Shown: in pieces, positions 3,825 through 39,875 of the stretch
Position numbering within the stretch: position 1 is the first letter of the stretch
How the letters are laid out: each line of letters opens with the position of its first letter
NCBI GenBank assembly: GCA_000934665.2
Contig: JYFJ02003349.1
Span: 1 to 43,486, forward strand
DNA from: Catajapyx aquilonaris
Taxonomy: Eukaryota
DNA: 43,486 bases
Reading direction: 5' to 3'
Program-made: the position numbers and the translations under genes
Notes under the pieces: model-generated
The model's input: only the letters and a program-made list of their open reading frames with translations
The model's database searches: none
Told to the model about the DNA's origin: nothing

Positions 3825-4026
3825 CTGAAAAATGAGAAGAATCATATTAAAATTTCCCTGACAAAGTTTATAATCTGCTACAATTGTGGGAATTTAAATG
3901 AGGGGCAAGTTTGGTATTACATAAAAATACGACTGAGTTCCATAAAAAGCTGCCAATTTTTCACTGCACATCTTGAAACACAAGATTGAATTCAGAAACA
4001 TGTTACCAGTAGGCATTAGTCCTGGG

Positions 4027-4395
4027 CAGCCCACGGACACTACCCCTACAGTCTTATCTTATCACCTGCCGGGGCGTTTTGCATGGGGTGCTCACTTGAG
4101 AGCGCCATGAGACCTTTCACTGCTGGATTATGTGGCGACCCTACCGGACTACGGTGAACTTTATAGGTACAAAAGGGAAGCGTTACATTGGGGGACCCAA
4201 CATGGTTGCCAGCGGCCTTGTTGGGCCCACTTGTAGCGGCTTCACTTCTACCTAAGTTCAGCGTAGTCCGGTAGGGTCGCCACATAATCCAGCAGTGAAA
4301 AGCTGTCTCATGGCGCTCTCAAGTGAGCACCTCATGCAAAACACCCCGGCAGGAGATAAGTGGGAGTGACCAGACCTGAGTATTCTGAGACCATG
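4027..4395. mobile_element. Palindromic non-autonomous element with asymmetric ends (CAGCCC...ACCATG), copy 1
   Basis: 8-bp TSD GTCCTGGG (4019-4026, 4396-4403); roughly 100-130 bp internal inverted arms; homologous to 36960-37276 and 37691-38066. Confidence 0.9.
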
Positions 4396-4403
4396 GTCCT
4401 GGG

Positions 4404-4679
4404 CAGCCCCCTGCAACTCCCTATCTAGCCATATGGGGTAGGCCGTGCACTTAGTGAGTCCCCTATCCCCGGATGTGGAGTAGGCCTACTGTACCAAATC
4501 GCATTTGGGTGGCTGGTGCGGTGGATCTGCAAACTGGGGCTGAATGGGAGTTGGCAATTTAGGTACGTTCAGTATGGTTCAGAAGTCATCGGCCCAAATG
4601 CGATTTGGTACAGTGCTCCACATCTGGGGATAAGGGACTTGCTAAGCGCACGCGAAAAGAGAGGGAGTTGCGGGGGCTG
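4404..4679. mobile_element. MITE with CAGCCCCC TIRs and 8-bp TSD (P- or hAT-type)
   Basis: CAGCCCCCTGCAACTCCCT...AGGGAGTTGCGGGGGCTG; TSD GTCCTGGG at 4396-4403 and 4680-4687; extra internal inverted repeats (CTGTACCAAATCGCATTTGGG). Confidence 0.88.
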
Positions 4680-5254
4680 GTCCTGGGATTAAGACAAAAC
4701 TAAGAGACTTGATCACATTTCATATTCATAAACCCTTTTGAAGTTCCTGCTAGTCATAAGGACTACAAATAAATACCCAAGTCCCAATATTAAAAACCAA
4801 TGCGTTAGGAAATATACTACTTTAGGCCTGTTGGGGCCAGTTTAAAAAAATTCAAATTAAGGAGAGCATCTGCAATGATGCATTAGCTGCTACGGATAAT
4901 TGGAGATTTTCTCCTAATTTGTATTTGAGAAACCAGCCCTAAGACCTCCAAGGGGGTCGCGCGTGGCCGCGGTTATATTTATAAATTTAAAAATTACTGA
5001 TATTAAACAGAAATAAAATTAATTTTATAAATCTCATCTCATCATGAAGGTTTTTTCCAACACCTACTAACACTCCGGGGGGGGGGGGGGNTAAAATTAT
5101 CAATCAATTTCATAAATGCAGTGCAATTAACCCTGTACTGCACACATTTAGGATTTTGGGAAGAAAAAAAATTCGAATGCCTTTTTCTCATCATAGGCGA
5201 CATAAGGATGGTTTTTTAAATGTTTTGGTCATCTCTGACCCAATGACGTTGAAG

Positions 5255-5635
5255 TTGCATGGGCTGAGTCAAAAGTCATGGCGAGTATTTTTAAATTCAA
5301 AATCGATAACACATACAGATATGATCTTTGCTAAGTTTTGAAGGTCCGGCGATTACAATTTGATCTGATATATAGACGGCATCCATATCGCAAAGGGGGC
5401 CAGAAAACTAAATGCGATCATAACCCTCACCATTCCACCGCCTCATGCAGCTCGGGGTGGGGGGGTCACGATCCCTTTTCGTTTACCGGCTCCCCTTGAG
5501 ATCTCGGAGCCATCTATATTCCAGTCCAAATTGCATTCGCCGGACCTTACAAACATAGTAATGGTCATATCTGTACATGTTACCGGAACCTTTTGAATAA
5601 AAATACGTACAATGACTTAGGACTCAAACCTCAAG
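5255..5635. repeat. Degenerate long inverted repeat, probable DNA-transposon relic
   Basis: ACAGATATGATC..AAGGTCCGGCGATTACAATTTG pairs with CAAATTGCATTCGCCGGACCTT..GTCATATCTGT. A TTAA|CCC piggyBac-like end lies at about 5127-5133. Confidence 0.55.
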
Positions 5636-8518: not shown

Positions 8519-9603
8519 CAGTGGTTTTCAACCTGGGGTACGCGAACACAATTTAGGGGGTATGCGAAAGATATGGTGCGATGGCTTCCATCTCTACATT
8601 TGTTGGAATCATATTCTGAATTAACACAACACAAAGAATGGTACTCATTCTCATCTTTCTTTTTGCTAAAATTATTATTTCAATGACGATTTATTATATG
8701 CAGAAGCAGGGGCATTTTCTGACTGATGCCACTTTCATTCAGCCCATGCATTGAAACTCAGAAGCAACACGATAGTGTTAACTCAAACAACTGGTTCAAT
8801 TCTACCATTGCGCTTTGCAACATTGGGAAGGATTTGAAAACAAACTCTGGCTGCAGAGGCTGGTCTACCTGGCCTAAAGATTTTCTAGTCTCAACGAATG
8901 CAAGTGGCGGTTTCAAGATATCACCGCCAATATGTTTAATGTGCAAAACAAAATCAAAGGAATTATTTTAAAAATTTCAGTTATGGGAAAGTTGTGTACA
9001 AGGTAGCAACTTTGCTTGCTTTCCAACCATTTCCAACACTCCAAGAATATTTCAAGTGACAGTGGAAGTCAGCATCCAAGCCAACATACATTATTATTAT
9101 TGGAGCACATTAATCAATTGATGCAATAGTTTAGAAATGGTTTTTCAGAGATGGACATGCCAATCAATTGCGTCAGTATTACAGTTTTTTTACTCCTCCT
9201 GAACAGGTCAGTGCAGAATCACGAAAAGATCATCAAAATTTCTATGAATAGGACTTTGAAATTATTTTTGAAAAATTAGAACTTGGGCTGAAAAATGGAA
9301 GACTATCTGGACCTGGCAACCAGTGCAGTGCTCTGAAGTACCTAATACCATTAACTCCAAGCATTAACTACCTAATTATGTGAAGATATTTTTTGCATTA
9401 ACATCCATGAAAACAAAGTCTGTTGAGAAAGACCTCAGGCTTCAATTGGCACCACTTGTAACCATAAGACAGTGTGAAAGAAGAAAGCACACCTGATAAG
9501 TGCCCACAATTACTATTATAAGGTAACAATTAGGAGTAGGGGTACAAACTGTCCTGACATATTTGAAAAGGGGTATGCGACAAAAAAAGTTTGGGAACCA
9601 CTG
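8519..9603 (+). mobile_element. hAT Buster/Charlie-type deletion derivative with transposase remnant
   Basis: CAGTGGTTTTCAACCT...TTTGGGAACCACTG; perfect TSD CCCTATGG (NNNTANNN); frameshifted hAT dimerisation-domain remnant DYLDLATSA..LKYLIP..LCE..ALTSMKTK..VEKDLRLQL at about 9300-9450. Confidence 0.9.
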
Positions 9604-17782: not shown

Positions 17783-17820
17783 CTGGGAAATTATCTCATG
17801 CAAGATGGGTCACCACCAAA

Positions 17821-18331
17821 CTGACAACCAAACTAACTCTTTTTACCCTCCTAAATTTTGAAATTATTTGGATTTTCTAATTCTGCTTGACCTATAGTGT
17901 TGTGCAAACATCACCTCTGCTGCTAATTTTCACGTTAGCAGGGTCAAAATACAAGCCAAAAGGTGATATTCCGAAGCCACAACGCCTTCATCCGGTCGCG
18001 GGTGGCCGAGACTGATATCAGTGATACGTAAATGATCGATTAAACTTGATTCATAAATTGCTACATAAAATAATTGATTTCGAAGAGTGTGAGGTGATAT
18101 TCTACTTGTTCGTGCCACCCTAGAGCGCGCTACAGTCGCGGTGACCAGGGACATGCGACCCACGACCGGCTGCTAGTGTTGTGGCTTCGGAATATCGCCT
18201 TTTGCCTTGTATTTTGACGTGAAAATTAGCAGCAGAGGTGATGTTTGCACAACACTATTGGCCAAGCAGAATGAGAAAATGCAAAAATTTTCAAAATTTA
18301 GGAGGGTAAAAAGAGTTAGTTTGGTTGTGAG
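17821..18331. mobile_element. Compound palindrome: hAT-like MITE (17895-18257) inside an outer hairpin element
   Basis: Inner TAGTGTTGTGCAAACATCACC...GGTGATGTTTGCACAACACTA with 8-bp flanks TTGACCTA/TTGGCCAA; outer arms ACAACCAAACTAACTCTTTTTACCCTCCTAAATTTTGAAA and reverse complement. Confidence 0.75.
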
Positions 18332-18660
18332 TGCTTCTAATTTACATCAGCGCTACAGACTCATTTGCAAACTTGAAGGAACTGGCTACTTTCATCATAA
18401 AGTGTATGTCCCAATGTGGTTTTCCATTAAAAATGCAATCCAACCATCAAGGATGCTCCCATCCTTCTCATGGCACCTATAAGTGATGAACTAAAGCTCT
18501 TTGTGGATCAATGCAATTATTCTGCACAATGGTTTCTTCACACATTCACAGAATTTACTTGTAGCCATGCTTACTGATGAATGATAACTCATTCAAGAGC
18601 TAGCTTTGTGTAAAATCTTTTCTGCGAGATCAAGGAGGTCAAAATAAGCATTCCAGTACT

Positions 18661-25811: not shown

Positions 25812-28678
25812 AATTTTCCCTCCGCTTTCGATCACTTCTGTGTACGTTGACTGACACCAAGTTCAACATATGTAGGCTACCAGACACTACACACGGGTTT
25901 GCTGCTATAAATTAATTAATTAATTACATATTTTGATAATCTACGTATGTAAGGCAAAAAAATAACATCTGTTTGCCTGTGGCAACAAAATTTTGTTGGT
26001 GATTACCATAGAAACAGGCCTGTAAATGGTTTCAAATTTTGCACTTCCCCCAATTTTTTTATCCCAATTTTTTATGTCCCCTCCCCTCAATGTATCTCCA
26101 CCTTGCCGTGGTGGTGGTCTTTCGTTTTCCCATGATCCTGAAGAGCTATGCCGGCGGTAGTTTCGTCTACTGGTAGGGCCGCCCAAGTTGGACAGGTCTT
26201 TGGGATAGGAGACAGACTAAGAGAGATACCAGTCTTTCCTCTCTTCTTTTTCCTCTTTGTTTCTGTCTCCATCTGTCCCACCTTTTTGTATTCTGATAAC
26301 CACATAGCCAGAGTTGCGTGGCTCTTTATTACGCAAACAAACCAGAATTTTTACACCCTTCCAGTGCCTACATATGCAAGGGAATGAGCAGTTTTGTATT
26401 TAATATTGCTTGAGATCTAAGAAGATTTCGGTGTAATTATCCACGCTCTTTTTTCCCCGTGCGAAGAACGGGTACCGCTGCTAGTGTACCATATATTTAT
26501 CTTTCCATTGCAACAACTTATTCAGCATAAAAATTAGCAAGTTTAAATACCATCTTTGTGTGTCATCAAGAGGTGTCATGTAAGTCACAATTTTTTGACA
26601 TTTTAAACATATTTAGCTGTAGTACCAAAATCTAAAAGCTGATATTCATTACCTTCTCACTACACAGCAGTACTCTTCAAATAATAAAAATAATTGTGAG
26701 GTAATATTTGTCTGAACACTGTTATGGCCATTTAATTTTTGTCTTGTAAGTCACGTTTCCGCTTGGATGCCACTGTCACTATTGTTTCCCGGCTGTTAAA
26801 ATGGCACTTGCAGTAGTGGAATGGAAGAAAAAGCAAATGTAATAGTTAAAGCAAGAAGGGAAGTAAGAGCTGTCCTAGATAAGTGCATTGGAAGGCAAAA
26901 AGAAAAGTGTATTTTTTAAAAAAATGGACTTTTAGTGAGAGAGAAGCTTTGAAGGTATAAAATATAGAGTTTGAAAAGCCAACAATGCCAGACAGTTTGA
27001 TCCAAACACAGCTGGAGAATTTGCAGAAGTTGACCATAGAGTTTATCCAAATATTAATATTATATTCATTGGATCAAAGGATATTGAAAGAAGAACAGCT
27101 ACGCTTGATGAAATGTGGACTCCTACTAGAAAAGAAGTTGTTTATTTTCTTGACTAAGAAAATCTCATTATTTCAGTACACTTGGACATTATGAACTAGA
27201 ATATTCTCTTATTTCCAATGCTTCCATTTATGAGTTTGATATTGTTTATTTTTAACTGGACCTATTAAGGTGGAAATGAAGCGACTTGCTAATCAAATGA
27301 GAGTCTAGAATTGGAATGTTAATAAGAAGGGCTAAAATCAGGGAAACATACGCAACCGATGCAGCAGTAAATGCTGTTCAATCCTATGCATTCCATTCGA
27401 ATCTGCGTTTTAAACTCGATTTAATATGGGCCTATTACCGGCTGCAAGTTTTTGTGCGCAGGCGCCATTTACACGACTGCCAACTTAAACATGGTATTTG
27501 GAGGTGTGCTTAATATTTTTTATTTTTGATGGAAATCGATTTAATCCGGTCGTAATTACGAGGTCCCAATTTGTCATGGCATTTTTAAAAGTTTAGTTCC
27601 GAAAGGGGAGCCTGTAGCTCTTCATTTGTGTCGGATTTGGAACACGTTCAGTTGGTACGCGGGTGACAGATAGAAGCGGCAACGCAGCAAATGTCCAGGC
27701 CAATTATCGCGTAGCAATGTGACGTCATTGCCGGGTGGATTCGAATGATTCGATTTTTTTATTATAATTATAACTATATAAACTAATATAACGGTTCTGA
27801 CGTCTGACAAACACCCCCGCCAAACGAAAATCCTGTGTGAGCCATTGTGAAAACCATCATACTAGCTTGCACTCATATTTCGCGGTCGTATGCAACCGTA
27901 TCTCGCTACCGTAAACAACGCTATGTTGCCACGTCCTCACTCGAGTGTAGCAATGTGACGTCACTGGATCATTTTCGGATAGTTTTTCAGCAATACAAAT
28001 TGAAAGAGCACGGTGAGGCAGGTTTTTCTTTTTGCGGTTACGATCAGTATATAATTCCCGACATATTCCACATTAAATTTTAAAATTCTCATTTGCTTAT
28101 CATTTTTTTGTGGACTATTGAAAATTCTGCCATAAGGGCCCATGTTAAATCGCGAACTTCTGAGCCCTCTAGTTCGCTAATTTGCACGGTGACATGTATT
28201 TTTCTTTGCGCCATTGATAAGAGGACACAAAACTGCGTAACATATGTTTTTTTCATAAAATTCTCATTGAGTGACTCTAGCTTCATTTCCACCTTAAAGA
28301 CATTGTAACACAAACTTCTGGTACTCATGCAGCTAATATTCATCCCAGATGTGTAATTTGCCTGCAGAATCTACAAATAATAGTGAATCCACTTTTAGTT
28401 TTACAGATAATAAAGAAGATAACTGGATTGTCATTGAGTGCAAATATAATGGACAGAACTCACTACATGCTTTGTTGGGCAAGTCATACCAATTTATAGA
28501 CCATTTATACACAATCATATAGACTACGTAAATTGTAGTAGCCTACATATACATTCCGCCTTCATGGCATTACATCCCATGACAGGGTGGCCAGCAACGA
28601 CCATCAGGTATCACACCTGGCCATCTCACATGACAATACAATGCATCCACTGCTGTCTACTCAGGTACACACATTATA

Positions 28679-28997
28679 CAGGGTGATTCTCCCGAATGGA
28701 AACCCAAACATTCCTCAATAACTTTTTAACTATGGTATGGTTCCCTATGAAAATTGACTTGTACTTACCTTGTATCATGCAAACAAGGTCTGACTAAAGA
28801 ATATACCGAAAATGGTCCCCTCCAGCATCCAAGAATTTTTAAATGGAAGTCTGCATATTGCCGAAGACTCCTGCAGATTGGCAGCCAGGGATGGAGCATG
28901 ATACAAGGTAAGTGCAAGTCAATTTTAATCGGGAACCATACCATAGTTAAAAAGTTAATGAGGAATGTTTGGGTTTCCATTCGAGAGAATCACCCTG
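28679..28997. mobile_element. Tc1/mariner-type MITE with about 100-bp TIRs
   Basis: TA|CAGGGTGATTCTCCCGAATGGAAACCCAAACATTCCTCA...TGAGGAATGTTTGGGTTTCCATTCGAGAGAATCACCCTG|TA. Confidence 0.9.
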
Positions 28998-29258
28998 TAC
29001 ATGAATTATACATGTTATTATAAGAATTGAAGCCCTGCACATTCTCATGTAGGCCTATCATTTAAATATTTAAATAAAATAACATGTAATAAGAGAGATT
29101 ACTTTGTTTGTGCGCTAAAATCCCAAATTCTTCTCACGAATCTAATCAGAAAGCAATGAGGACAAAAGTGTCGTGTAAGTCACGTTTCAAGTGTCGTGTA
29201 AGTCACGAAAGAAATAATTTATTTCTTGTAGAATTAATAATATAACACCAAGTTTACA

Positions 29259-36208: not shown

Positions 36209-36486
36209 CAGTGGTTTTCAACCTTTTACCAACTGCGACCCCCTAAACAAATTTCCCTAAATGTGCGACCCCCTAAACAAATTTCCCTAAATGTGCGACC
36301 CCCCCCCCCNGTTTCCATAAACGTGCGACCCCCCCCCCCAGCCCCTTCTACAACTGCCCAATTTCCTGAAAACACACTCTGTACGGCCGCAAAAATGGTT
36401 CAATTTACACAGAAATTGCAAAGAAAATAATAATAATAATAACAAAGGCTTACGACCCCCCGCGACCCCCAGGTTGGAAACCCCTG
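36209..36486. mobile_element. hAT Buster-type MITE
   Basis: CAGTGGTTTTCAACCT...AGGTTGGAAACCCCTG; perfect TSD GATTAGGC; GCGACCCC subterminal repeats. Confidence 0.9.
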
Positions 36487-36949: not shown

Positions 36950-37436
36950 CAGTGTTGGACAGCCCCCGGACACTACCTCTACGTTCTTATCTTATCGCCT
37001 GCCGGGGCGTTTTGCAGGAGGGGCTCACCTGAGAACGCCATGAGACCTCTCACTGCACTGTTATGTGGCGACCCTACCGGACTACGCTGAACTTTATAGG
37101 TACGAAAGGGAAGTGCTTCCCTTTTGTACCTATAATAAAGTTCAGCGTAGTCCGGTAGGGTCGCCACATAACAGTGCAGTGAGAGGTCTCATGGCGTTCT
37201 CAGGTGAGCCCCTCCTGCAAAATGCCCCGGCAGAGGGTAGGTGGGAGTGTCCAGACCTAAGTATTCCATGACCATGGTGTTGGACATAAATCGAAGCATA
37301 CTGCCAGCGACATTTTCCGAAGCAGCAGAAAAAGGACTCTTGCTCACCCGACTTGAAGTATCCTTATCGTCAATTCCTTCTTCTGCCGCTTCGGAAAATG
37401 TCGCTAGTAATATGCCTCAATTTATGTCCAACACTG
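36950..37436. mobile_element. Tc1/mariner-type MITE whose left TIR is interrupted by palindromic element copy 2
   Basis: TA|CAGTGTTGGA[insertion]CATAAATCGAAGCATA...TATGCCTCAATTTATGTCCAACACTG|TA. Confidence 0.85.
36960..37276. mobile_element. Palindromic asymmetric-ended element, copy 2 (central deletion)
   Basis: TSD GTGTTGGA (36952-36959, 37277-37284); near-perfect hairpin centred near 37114. Confidence 0.9.
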
Positions 37437-37690
37437 TACTTCCACGCAAAATGTTACCATATTGCAATCTTGACCCACAAAGCCAAGTGTAAATCACTGC
37501 ATGCACATACCTCCACAGTGTAAACAAACAGACTGCACCTGCATATCTAAATTATCTGTACATGCTCCAGATGCACAAAATTCAAAAGCATCTTCACACA
37601 GACATGCAAATAAACATTTTACAGTCAATTTTCATAACAACCATTGCAATAGGACTGGTACACAGAGACAATCTCAGGGATAGTCCAAAC

Positions 37691-38066
37691 CAGCCCACGG
37701 ACACTACCCCTATCTTCTGGGCTTATCACCTGCCGAGGGGTTTTGCAGCGGGTGCTCACCTGAGACCGCCACGAGACATTTCCCAGAGCATTTATGTGGC
37801 GACCCTATCGGACTAAGGCTGAACTTTACAGGTACGAAAGGGGAGGGCTACATTGGGGGCCCCAACATGGCCGCCGGCGGCCATGTTGGGCCAGCATGTA
37901 GCGCTTCCCTTTCGTACTACCTATAAAGTTCAGCCTTAGTCCGGTAGGGTCGCCACATAAATGCTCTGGGAAATGTCTCGTGGCGGTCTCAGGTGAGCAC
38001 CCACTGCAAAACCCCTCGGCAGGGGGTGGGTGGGGAGTGACCTAACCTGAGTCTTCTACAACCATG
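37691..38066. mobile_element. Palindromic asymmetric-ended element, copy 3
   Basis: TSD GTCCAAAC (37683-37690, 38067-38074); central perfect 30-bp palindrome CCCAACATGGCCGCCGGCGGCCATGTTGGG. Confidence 0.9.
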
Positions 38067-38089
38067 GTCCAAACACACTGCAGGCTTAC

Positions 38090-39305: not shown

Positions 39306-39875
39306 CGAGGGCGAATCAAAAAGTAATTGACCACTTTTTAAATTCCGAATCTTCACAACAGAAACTGAAACCAAGACATACATATGAAAGGGCAAGTCTT
39401 TCTCTAATTTTAGACATAGTCACCATACACTTTGGTGCACTAGTCCCACTGGGACACTAGTTTTTCCATCATGCACCTGCAGAAAAAAGGGTCAGGATGG
39501 CTGGGAAGCTACTGGCGACAGCCTCTGTCACGTCCTCGTTATCACTGAAGTGCTGACTGGCCAGGTGCTTCTTTCATTGGTACCAAATGATGGTCTTAAC
39601 CACCATCTCTTTGAACCAAAAAAGAAGTACTGGCTTGTCATGACCTCAGCGACTCGAGGAAATGTCTGGAAAGCCAGTGGCGGATGGTCTCTTTCATTTC
39701 CTTGATGTTGCTGAGGTCTTGACAAGCCAGTACTTCTTTTTTGGTTCAAAGAGATGGTAGACTATGGTTAAGACCCTCATTTGGTACCAATGAAAGAAGC
39801 ACCTGGCCAGTCAGCACTTCAGTGACAACGAGGACATGACAGAGGCCGTCTCCACTCGCTTCCCAGCCATCCTGA
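39306..39875 (-). mobile_element. Mariner 3' end with foldback inversion of the transposase remnant
   Basis: TIR CGAGGGCGAATCAAAAAGT; - strand reads LASQHFSDNEDVTEAV..PFFC..MEKLVSQWD*CTKVYGDYV; 39492-39665 is inverted at about 39694-39875. Confidence 0.8.

Follow-up and report, generated by a model that had tools for sequence, protein, structure and literature searches.

A family of MITEs with unlike ends in Catajapyx aquilonaris, probably a non-autonomous member of the P superfamily

The DNA analysed here, which we call the window, is a stretch of 43,486 nucleotides from Catajapyx aquilonaris (assembly GCA_000934665.2, contig JYFJ02003349.1, positions 1 to 43,486 of the forward strand), and it carries three copies of a short palindromic element, family A (Table 1). 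A sequence-only reading of the window had described a mobile element with exact 8-bp TSDs and non-matching termini. Such duplications are indeed found at all three copies, and the left (L) and right (R) tips have only 2-3 matching positions among the first 8 and 5-6 among the first 24. The long inverted repeat lies inside the element, as that reading had it, with a DNA fold at z = -20.9. In copy 2 the arms (36999-37097 and 37135-37233) are 99% complementary, while those of copy 3 lie at 37729-37834 and 37918-38023.

Table 1. Family A copies, their parts and the elements that adjoin or enclose them, in window coordinates.
Feature	Position	Strand	Description
Family A copy 1, MITE	4027..4395	+	369 bp, non-coding, unlike CA..TG tips; Rfam search without match
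Left 8-bp TSD of copy 1	4019..4026	+	GTCCTGGG
Left (L) tip of copy 1	4027..4034	+	8 nt, then directly GGACAC at 4035-4040
Internal palindrome of copy 1	4058..4360	.	two subterminal arms of ~100 nt flanking a hairpin-rich centre
Shared motif of copy 1, right side	4366..4371	-	GGTCAC variant, 24 nt inside right tip
Right (R) tip of copy 1	4372..4395	-	24 nt; inward CAT-GGTCT-11 nt-GGTCT
Right TSD of copy 1	4396..4403	+	also left TSD of adjoining family-B element
Family-B MITE	4404..4679	+	matching CAGCCCCC tips, 8-bp TSD, sub-TIRs 40 and 27 nt from tips
Third copy of the TSD	4680..4687	+	GTCCTGGG
MITE with TA flanks	36950..37436	.	CAGTG..CACTG ends; left TIR split by copy 2
Family A copy 2	36960..37276	+	317 bp; TSD GTGTTGGA at 36952-36959 and 37277-37284
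Family A copy 3	37691..38066	+	376 bp; TSD GTCCAAAC at 37683-37690 and 38067-38074

Copy 1 stands head to tail with a MITE of a second family, B, and the pair is accompanied by three copies of one TSD (4019-4687); since the three duplications are identical, they imply two insertions into one target site. Contigs built from reads of the source sample end exactly at 4027. In all four runs, contig depth to the right of family B (4720-4932) is about half of that to the left of copy 1 (16 versus 28 in X1), and the right-hand side may be heterozygous. Copy 2 lies within a MITE that we take, from its ends, to be Tc1/mariner-like. The intact right TIR of this MITE carries the 8-mer of copy 2 once and is in effect an empty site, so that the boundary of copy 2 and its target duplication are confirmed within the window itself. 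Two further elements, at 8519-9603 and 36209-36486, have matched CAGTGG/CAGGGG tips and TA-centred 8-bp TSDs and are presumably hAT-Buster-like. The window is also dense with other palindromic MITE-like elements, for example at 1256-1774, 5304-5585, 17820-18332, 28677-28999 and 39492-39875.

The statement that the two ends share only CA needs correction. In all three window copies both ends contain GG(A/T)CAC, starting at a depth of 8 nt from the left tip and of 24 nt from the right one. The 24-nt position recurs in 61 of 77 right-end candidates, some of which are spurious matches. The right tip itself, read inward, consists of CAY, a 5-mer, 9-11 nt and the same 5-mer again; in copy 1 this direct repeat, at offset 16, occupies 4392-4388 and 4376-4372. 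Over 61 ends the self-match of the right tip peaks at offset 16, with 74% identity versus 45% at the next offset. The repeat is kept through a double change of GGTC to GGTT (two copies of one subfamily; copy 3 has GGTT in both halves), shows a wobble-compatible change (T-G) in 14 of the 61 ends, and is retained with a loop shorter by 2 nt in four copies, and the four variants of the right tip share one layout. Shuffling produces a run of 5 in 1.5% of cases (p = 0.015), and the changes that speak for the direct repeat include few independent ones. At the left tip a direct repeat was looked for and none is there.

When the commonest right tip is aligned with the beginning of the Drosophila P TIR (sequence from PMC11368186), 15 of 22 columns match, with a single gap (shuffle p = 0.013), and the right tips of the three window copies give p = 0.015-0.057 as against ~0.9 for their left tips; the comparison is post hoc and modest, and we take it as supporting only. 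At 4357-4364 a P THAP site is matched in 7 of 8 positions, no more than chance would give, and we made no use of this match. The two arms of a copy are slightly closer to each other than arms of different copies are (0.90 versus 0.86, p = 0.03), and a copy's own arm is its closest arm in just 9 of 38 copies.

How general are the unlike ends? In the 286-Mb assembly (20,583 contigs) exact matches to the 15-nt left tip number 852, compared with 1 for a control, and a 34-nt right-end pattern has 128, compared with 0; the latter had 0 matches in a metagenome collection. The sequence-only reading had left room for most genomic copies having matching TIRs, yet all 30 of the copies fetched by similarity carry one left-type and one right-type end, and all 30, selected as they were, measure 362-380 bp. 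Family A is short, non-coding, uniform in size and high in copy number, as befits a MITE. Among 78 loci (L001-L078), a non-random sample picked for resembling copy 1 or for matching the end patterns exactly, there are 69 left-right pairs, 40 with an exact 8-bp TSD, 14 with one mismatch and 15 with at least two. The last group, some of which are nested mispairings, was excluded before the target logo was made, leaving 54 sites. Among the longest exact duplications at these 54 sites, a length of 8 occurs 40 times and lengths of 7 and 9 never. We conclude that family A is a genuine, abundant, transposed class II element with stably different ends.

Unlike ends combined with subterminal inverted repeats occur in DINE-1/HINE elements, and family A recalls them in both respects. 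It could on that account be a rolling-circle (Helitron2/DINE-1-like) element, or a structured retroposed RNA, rather than a cut-and-paste transposon. However, the TSD is fixed at 8 bp, the ends are CA..TG, and there is neither an A-rich tail nor an Rfam match; the TSD census largely refutes this reading, which we consider very improbable indeed. Longer copies (481-1311 bp) were considered as a source of the interior of a master, but most of the additional sequence consists of palindromic inserts nested in them, and it is shared in no more than two pairs of copies. In some loci (L005/L035, G000:C1283; L043, G000:C65) family A copies are inserted, in either orientation, in the right-end tail of other copies, and this tail contains a good P-type target site.

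The 54 target sites give the logo W-T-R/GTCnnGAC/Y-A-W, with the TSD between the slashes. Its strongest columns lie outside the TSD, at -3 (A/T in 48 of 54, p = 7e-7) and at +3 (50 of 54, p = 2e-8). The TSD had been said to start with GT, which turns out to be a preference only: G1 and T2 each occur in 28 of 54 sites, as does A7. For the P element, Linheiro and Bergman (PMC2577343) describe a 14-bp palindromic target with its highest information at the outer positions. Scored against natural-insertion matrices for P and hobo (PMC3276498, file S6, with two columns of zero counts omitted), 46 of the 54 sites favour P over hobo, the single hAT matrix compared, against a background of 47% of random 14-mers from the window. 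The target profile correlates at 0.84 with P and at 0.51 with hobo. Family B behaves in the same way, with all 5 of the 5 sites scored favouring the P matrix.

These numbers bear directly on the possibility that family A is a non-autonomous, Ds-like hAT element with degenerate TIRs, whose transposase would bind subterminal repeats. An 8-bp TSD, a start with CAG and a GT..AC tendency that recalls the hobo and Hermes motifs would all be at home in a hAT element, and the genome has 134 matches to the hAT dimerisation domain (counted as domain matches). Yet the nTnnnnAn TSD of the hobo type is not seen, T2 and A7 each reaching 28 of 54 where the hobo matrix has ~78%, and both the outlying position of the strongest columns and the lead of the P matrix tell against it. 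Hobo is not the only hAT pattern to consider: Buster-type hAT elements have a TA-centred TSD. The central TSD columns of family A carry only 0.02-0.09 bits, so that no TA-centring appears, and the Buster-like MITEs of the same window differ from family A in their matched tips as well as in their TA-centred TSDs. We regard a hAT origin as improbable.

Fish Zisupton elements have subterminal repeats, and a non-autonomous Zisupton/KDZ element would be another way to account for family A. Zisupton and Dileera make 8-bp TSDs, and Kyakuja, with 7-bp TSDs, has CA..TG termini and no TIRs (Kojima 2025, PMC12730594), much as family A does. The transposase of that group is a different one, and here neither KDZ nor CxC5 gave a match in the genome, in two insensitive searches that were also without hits in control genomes. 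Moreover, the target motif is P-like, on matrices that cover P and hobo only. This reading seems to us slightly less probable still than the hAT one.

The sequence-only reading had pointed to P or hAT, and P fits better, on the target matrices and the TSD census, with hobo as the only hAT comparison. Features of the P superfamily that family A displays are a TSD within the 7-8 bp range, a P-like 14-bp palindromic target and CA..TG termini. The matching TIRs of 13-31 bp that characterize canonical P and Pdre are absent, with agreement at 5-6 of 24 positions, but on our analysis their lack excludes the canonical P type only and not the superfamily. Although it had been argued that P elements normally need matching TIRs, BuT5 and its master, with 3-bp TIRs plus sub-TIRs, are a published exception (PMC3698922), and because of them matching TIRs cannot be required of the superfamily. 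We propose, with a probability of about 0.7, that family A is a non-autonomous MITE of the P superfamily that moved by cut-and-paste in trans, a probable rather than a proven membership.

BuT5, from the Drosophila repleta group, is the closest parallel. According to Rius et al. (2013; PMC3698922), this MITE measures ~1 kb, makes 8-9-bp TSDs and has TIRs of 3 bp together with sub-TIRs of 16-17 bp; the same ends are found on its master, a divergent P element. Like BuT5, family A is non-coding and homogeneous in size, has its inverted repeat set inside and makes a TSD in the 8-9-bp range; both are driven by the P superfamily, which for family A is probable only; and BuT5 copies are ~93% identical, with similar values for family A. 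In contrast to BuT5, for which a master is known, family A is ~370 bp long, is nearly all palindrome and has a TSD of strictly 8 bp, and whereas the BuT5 sub-TIRs are placed nearly symmetrically, ending 32 and 30 bp from the tips, the motif of family A is offset by 16 nt between its ends.

With the P element of D. melanogaster, family A shares the 8-bp TSD and the 14-bp palindromic target that is strongest outside the TSD (Ghanim et al. 2020, PMC7776569; PMC2577343), a CATG-type tip that resembles its right end, and an internal site whose spacing differs between the two ends (9 and 21 bp in P; PMC7776569). However, P has perfect 31-bp TIRs, while the tips of family A have only CA in common and its spacings differ by 16 nt. 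Galileo and 1360, also of the P superfamily, have long inverted repeats, a foldback structure and a P-type target preference, but differ in a TSD that is 7 bp in most cases and in long repeats that extend as far as the tips, as has been shown for Galileo (PMC4168063, PMC3276498). In the literature covered, outside which lie most subscription papers and Repbase Reports, we found no P element with tips offset as in family A. Family A is best described as a variation on a known theme, the P-driven MITE with nearly lost TIRs, and the part that differs is the placement of the motif at 8 versus 24 nt.

Does the genome contain a P element that could serve as master? There are 87 matches to the P-type RNase-H domain of P transposase. 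Among ~60 of these loci, read with up to 4.5 kb of flank, no coding element with family A ends was found, and family A is represented there only by short inserted copies. Two coding P elements, L143:1269-8415 (G000:C2409) and L144:1481-6841 (G000:C6561), do have unlike CA..TG tips, and each has an exact 8-bp TSD (GCTCTGAC and GCTGTTAC, respectively). They belong to one P clade, with coding parts that are 72% alike; in both, the 5' side of the gene starts with CAGGGGGGTG(C/A)AACT and the other end is the complement of CACAGA. The proteins of this clade carry P-type RNase-H and GTP-binding domains, and a sister copy with damaged tips, L131 (G000:C2299), has a frame of 945 codons with THAP, RNase-H and GTP-binding domains, whose homologs are P-type proteins, from insects wherever the source is named. 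The 5' tip of the L143 family occurs six times in six different flanks, while the L143 3' tip has a single occurrence in the assembly, and in loci of 9 kb CA..TG pairs with an 8-bp repeat often arise by chance. Each asymmetric coding P family rests on one whole insertion and on the mutual agreement of the two. By eye, the left tip of family A and the 5' end of L143 agree at only 7 of 15 positions, which is under Repbase's 11-position rule. On this evidence, P elements without TIRs probably exist in this genome, and this is not a demonstration that they move family A.

Several further observations concern these P elements. In the L143, L144 and L131 elements a short motif near both ends is repeated in direct rather than inverted orientation (by eye). 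Three of the six 5' ends of the L143 family lie at a distance of 97 bp from the end of a contig, a sign that young copies may have been collapsed, and a further such 5' end, L224, runs on for only ~300 bp without a 3' end. A set of 80 metagenome loci of the L131 clade yielded no usable termini: 43 are flanked on both sides, end motifs gave no match, and TSD-like pairs often arose by chance. One P-type element, L210 (G000:C5796:3500-12009), has long inverted ends that contain an L-L foldback form of family A, and L210 and L204 both hold another family A copy at the same interior position. L137:2254-6052 (G000:C2376), also of the P type, combines long matched TIRs with a frame of 879 codons and is flanked by an exact 8-bp TSD.

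How did the ends of family A come to be unlike? The element had been called hybrid-ended, and within the P superfamily this can be made concrete: in an element with two CAGCCC tips, as in family B, one tip would have been replaced by 24 nt from a P element with CATG tips, and amplification of this chimera would have followed. Such an event is compatible with P membership, as it concerns origin only. By eye, 9 of the first 11 positions are indeed the same in the left tip and in the family B tip, the right tip does resemble the canonical P TIR, and the right end does hold the good P target into which other copies have inserted. On the other hand, a donor family carrying CATGG tips on both sides did not turn up, the lone candidate (L031) having two TSD mismatches, and the four variants of the right tip all keep one layout. 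Moreover, the same genome holds coding P elements that are unlike-tipped as well, and because of these the asymmetry may be native. We consider the hybrid origin rather unlikely, if clearly less so than the hAT and KDZ readings.

Returning to family A as a P-superfamily MITE, we can ask whether its two end types are interchangeable. Exact TSDs occur in 0 of 6 same-end pairs as compared with 40 of 69 left-right pairs (Fisher p = 0.008, on a small sample), and most same-end pairs are rearranged or nested copies. Neither same-end form holds up as a mobile subfamily. For R-R, three of four cases have a left tip outside, and the TSD of the resulting left-right unit has one mismatch in L040 and L078 and three in L033; L031 is the sole R-R pair that may be a transposed unit, with its two TSD mismatches. 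For L-L, one case is two nested copies and the other a foldback with inverted flanks. It had been supposed that the transposase tolerates different ends and reads internal sites. Different ends there are, but the data lean towards both types being required and not merely tolerated, and one end of each type may thus be needed; the reading of internal sites is plausible, as both ends carry one motif at different depths.

The Drosophila P element offers a framework for how such ends might be handled. Its TIRs are separated from the binding site by spacers of 9 and 21 bp, the cut is staggered by 17 nt, and the transferred strand loops out, doubles back and pairs with the 5' part of the other strand, as laid out in PMC7776569. 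By analogy, family A would have been spread in trans by a THAP/RNase-H/GTP-binding transposase, with its TIRs reduced to CA..TG. The GG(A/T)CAC motif and the outer arms would be putative transposase-binding sites, and a transposase of the P clade would pair the short-spaced (8-nt) with the long-spaced (24-nt) end, as in Drosophila P. Given P membership, we would put the odds that binding and pairing work in this way at roughly even.

A more tentative step concerns the right tip, which might be cut with a long P-type stagger and refold on its 5-nt direct repeat. With 16 nt looped out, the right end would gain the geometry that is native to the left end, namely an 8-nt tip followed by the motif. 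That the right tip uses the offset-16 repeat for doubling back is a suggestion that we rate as less likely than not, and the same arrangement would result from an old insertion of 16 nt or from the capture of a tip. Taken together, these considerations raise the speculative possibility of a P lineage without TIRs that follows an obligate two-end rule, with the motif at 8 versus 24 nt, and whose two ends would be processed by different routes in one transpososome; the 8/24 rule may be likened to the 12/23 rule of V(D)J recombination.

It had also been suggested that family A remains mobile, which our data do not support. Among 42 full-length copies, a thin sample of the family, identity to the nearest neighbour has a median of 94.5% and reaches 96.1% at most, and no joint that skips a family A element was seen in the contigs from four runs of one sample, contigs that show presence only and bear little on polymorphism. 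Family A was amplified in the past and is probably old.

What would these ends mean for the P superfamily more generally? P transposase pairs differently spaced ends and refolds each tip, and the origin of that structure is stated as unclear in the discussion of it in PMC7776569. If the two-end rule is true, only the long end keeps the tip repeat for the looped-out donor structure of the P type. If, on the other hand, no P master exists, family A is one more unclassified MITE with an 8-bp TSD. MITE finders based on TIRs would miss or misfile such elements, and a target-site profile can classify them. Hundreds of copies with unlike tips, together with coding P elements that are themselves unlike-tipped, are ready substrates for asking which features of the tips matter.
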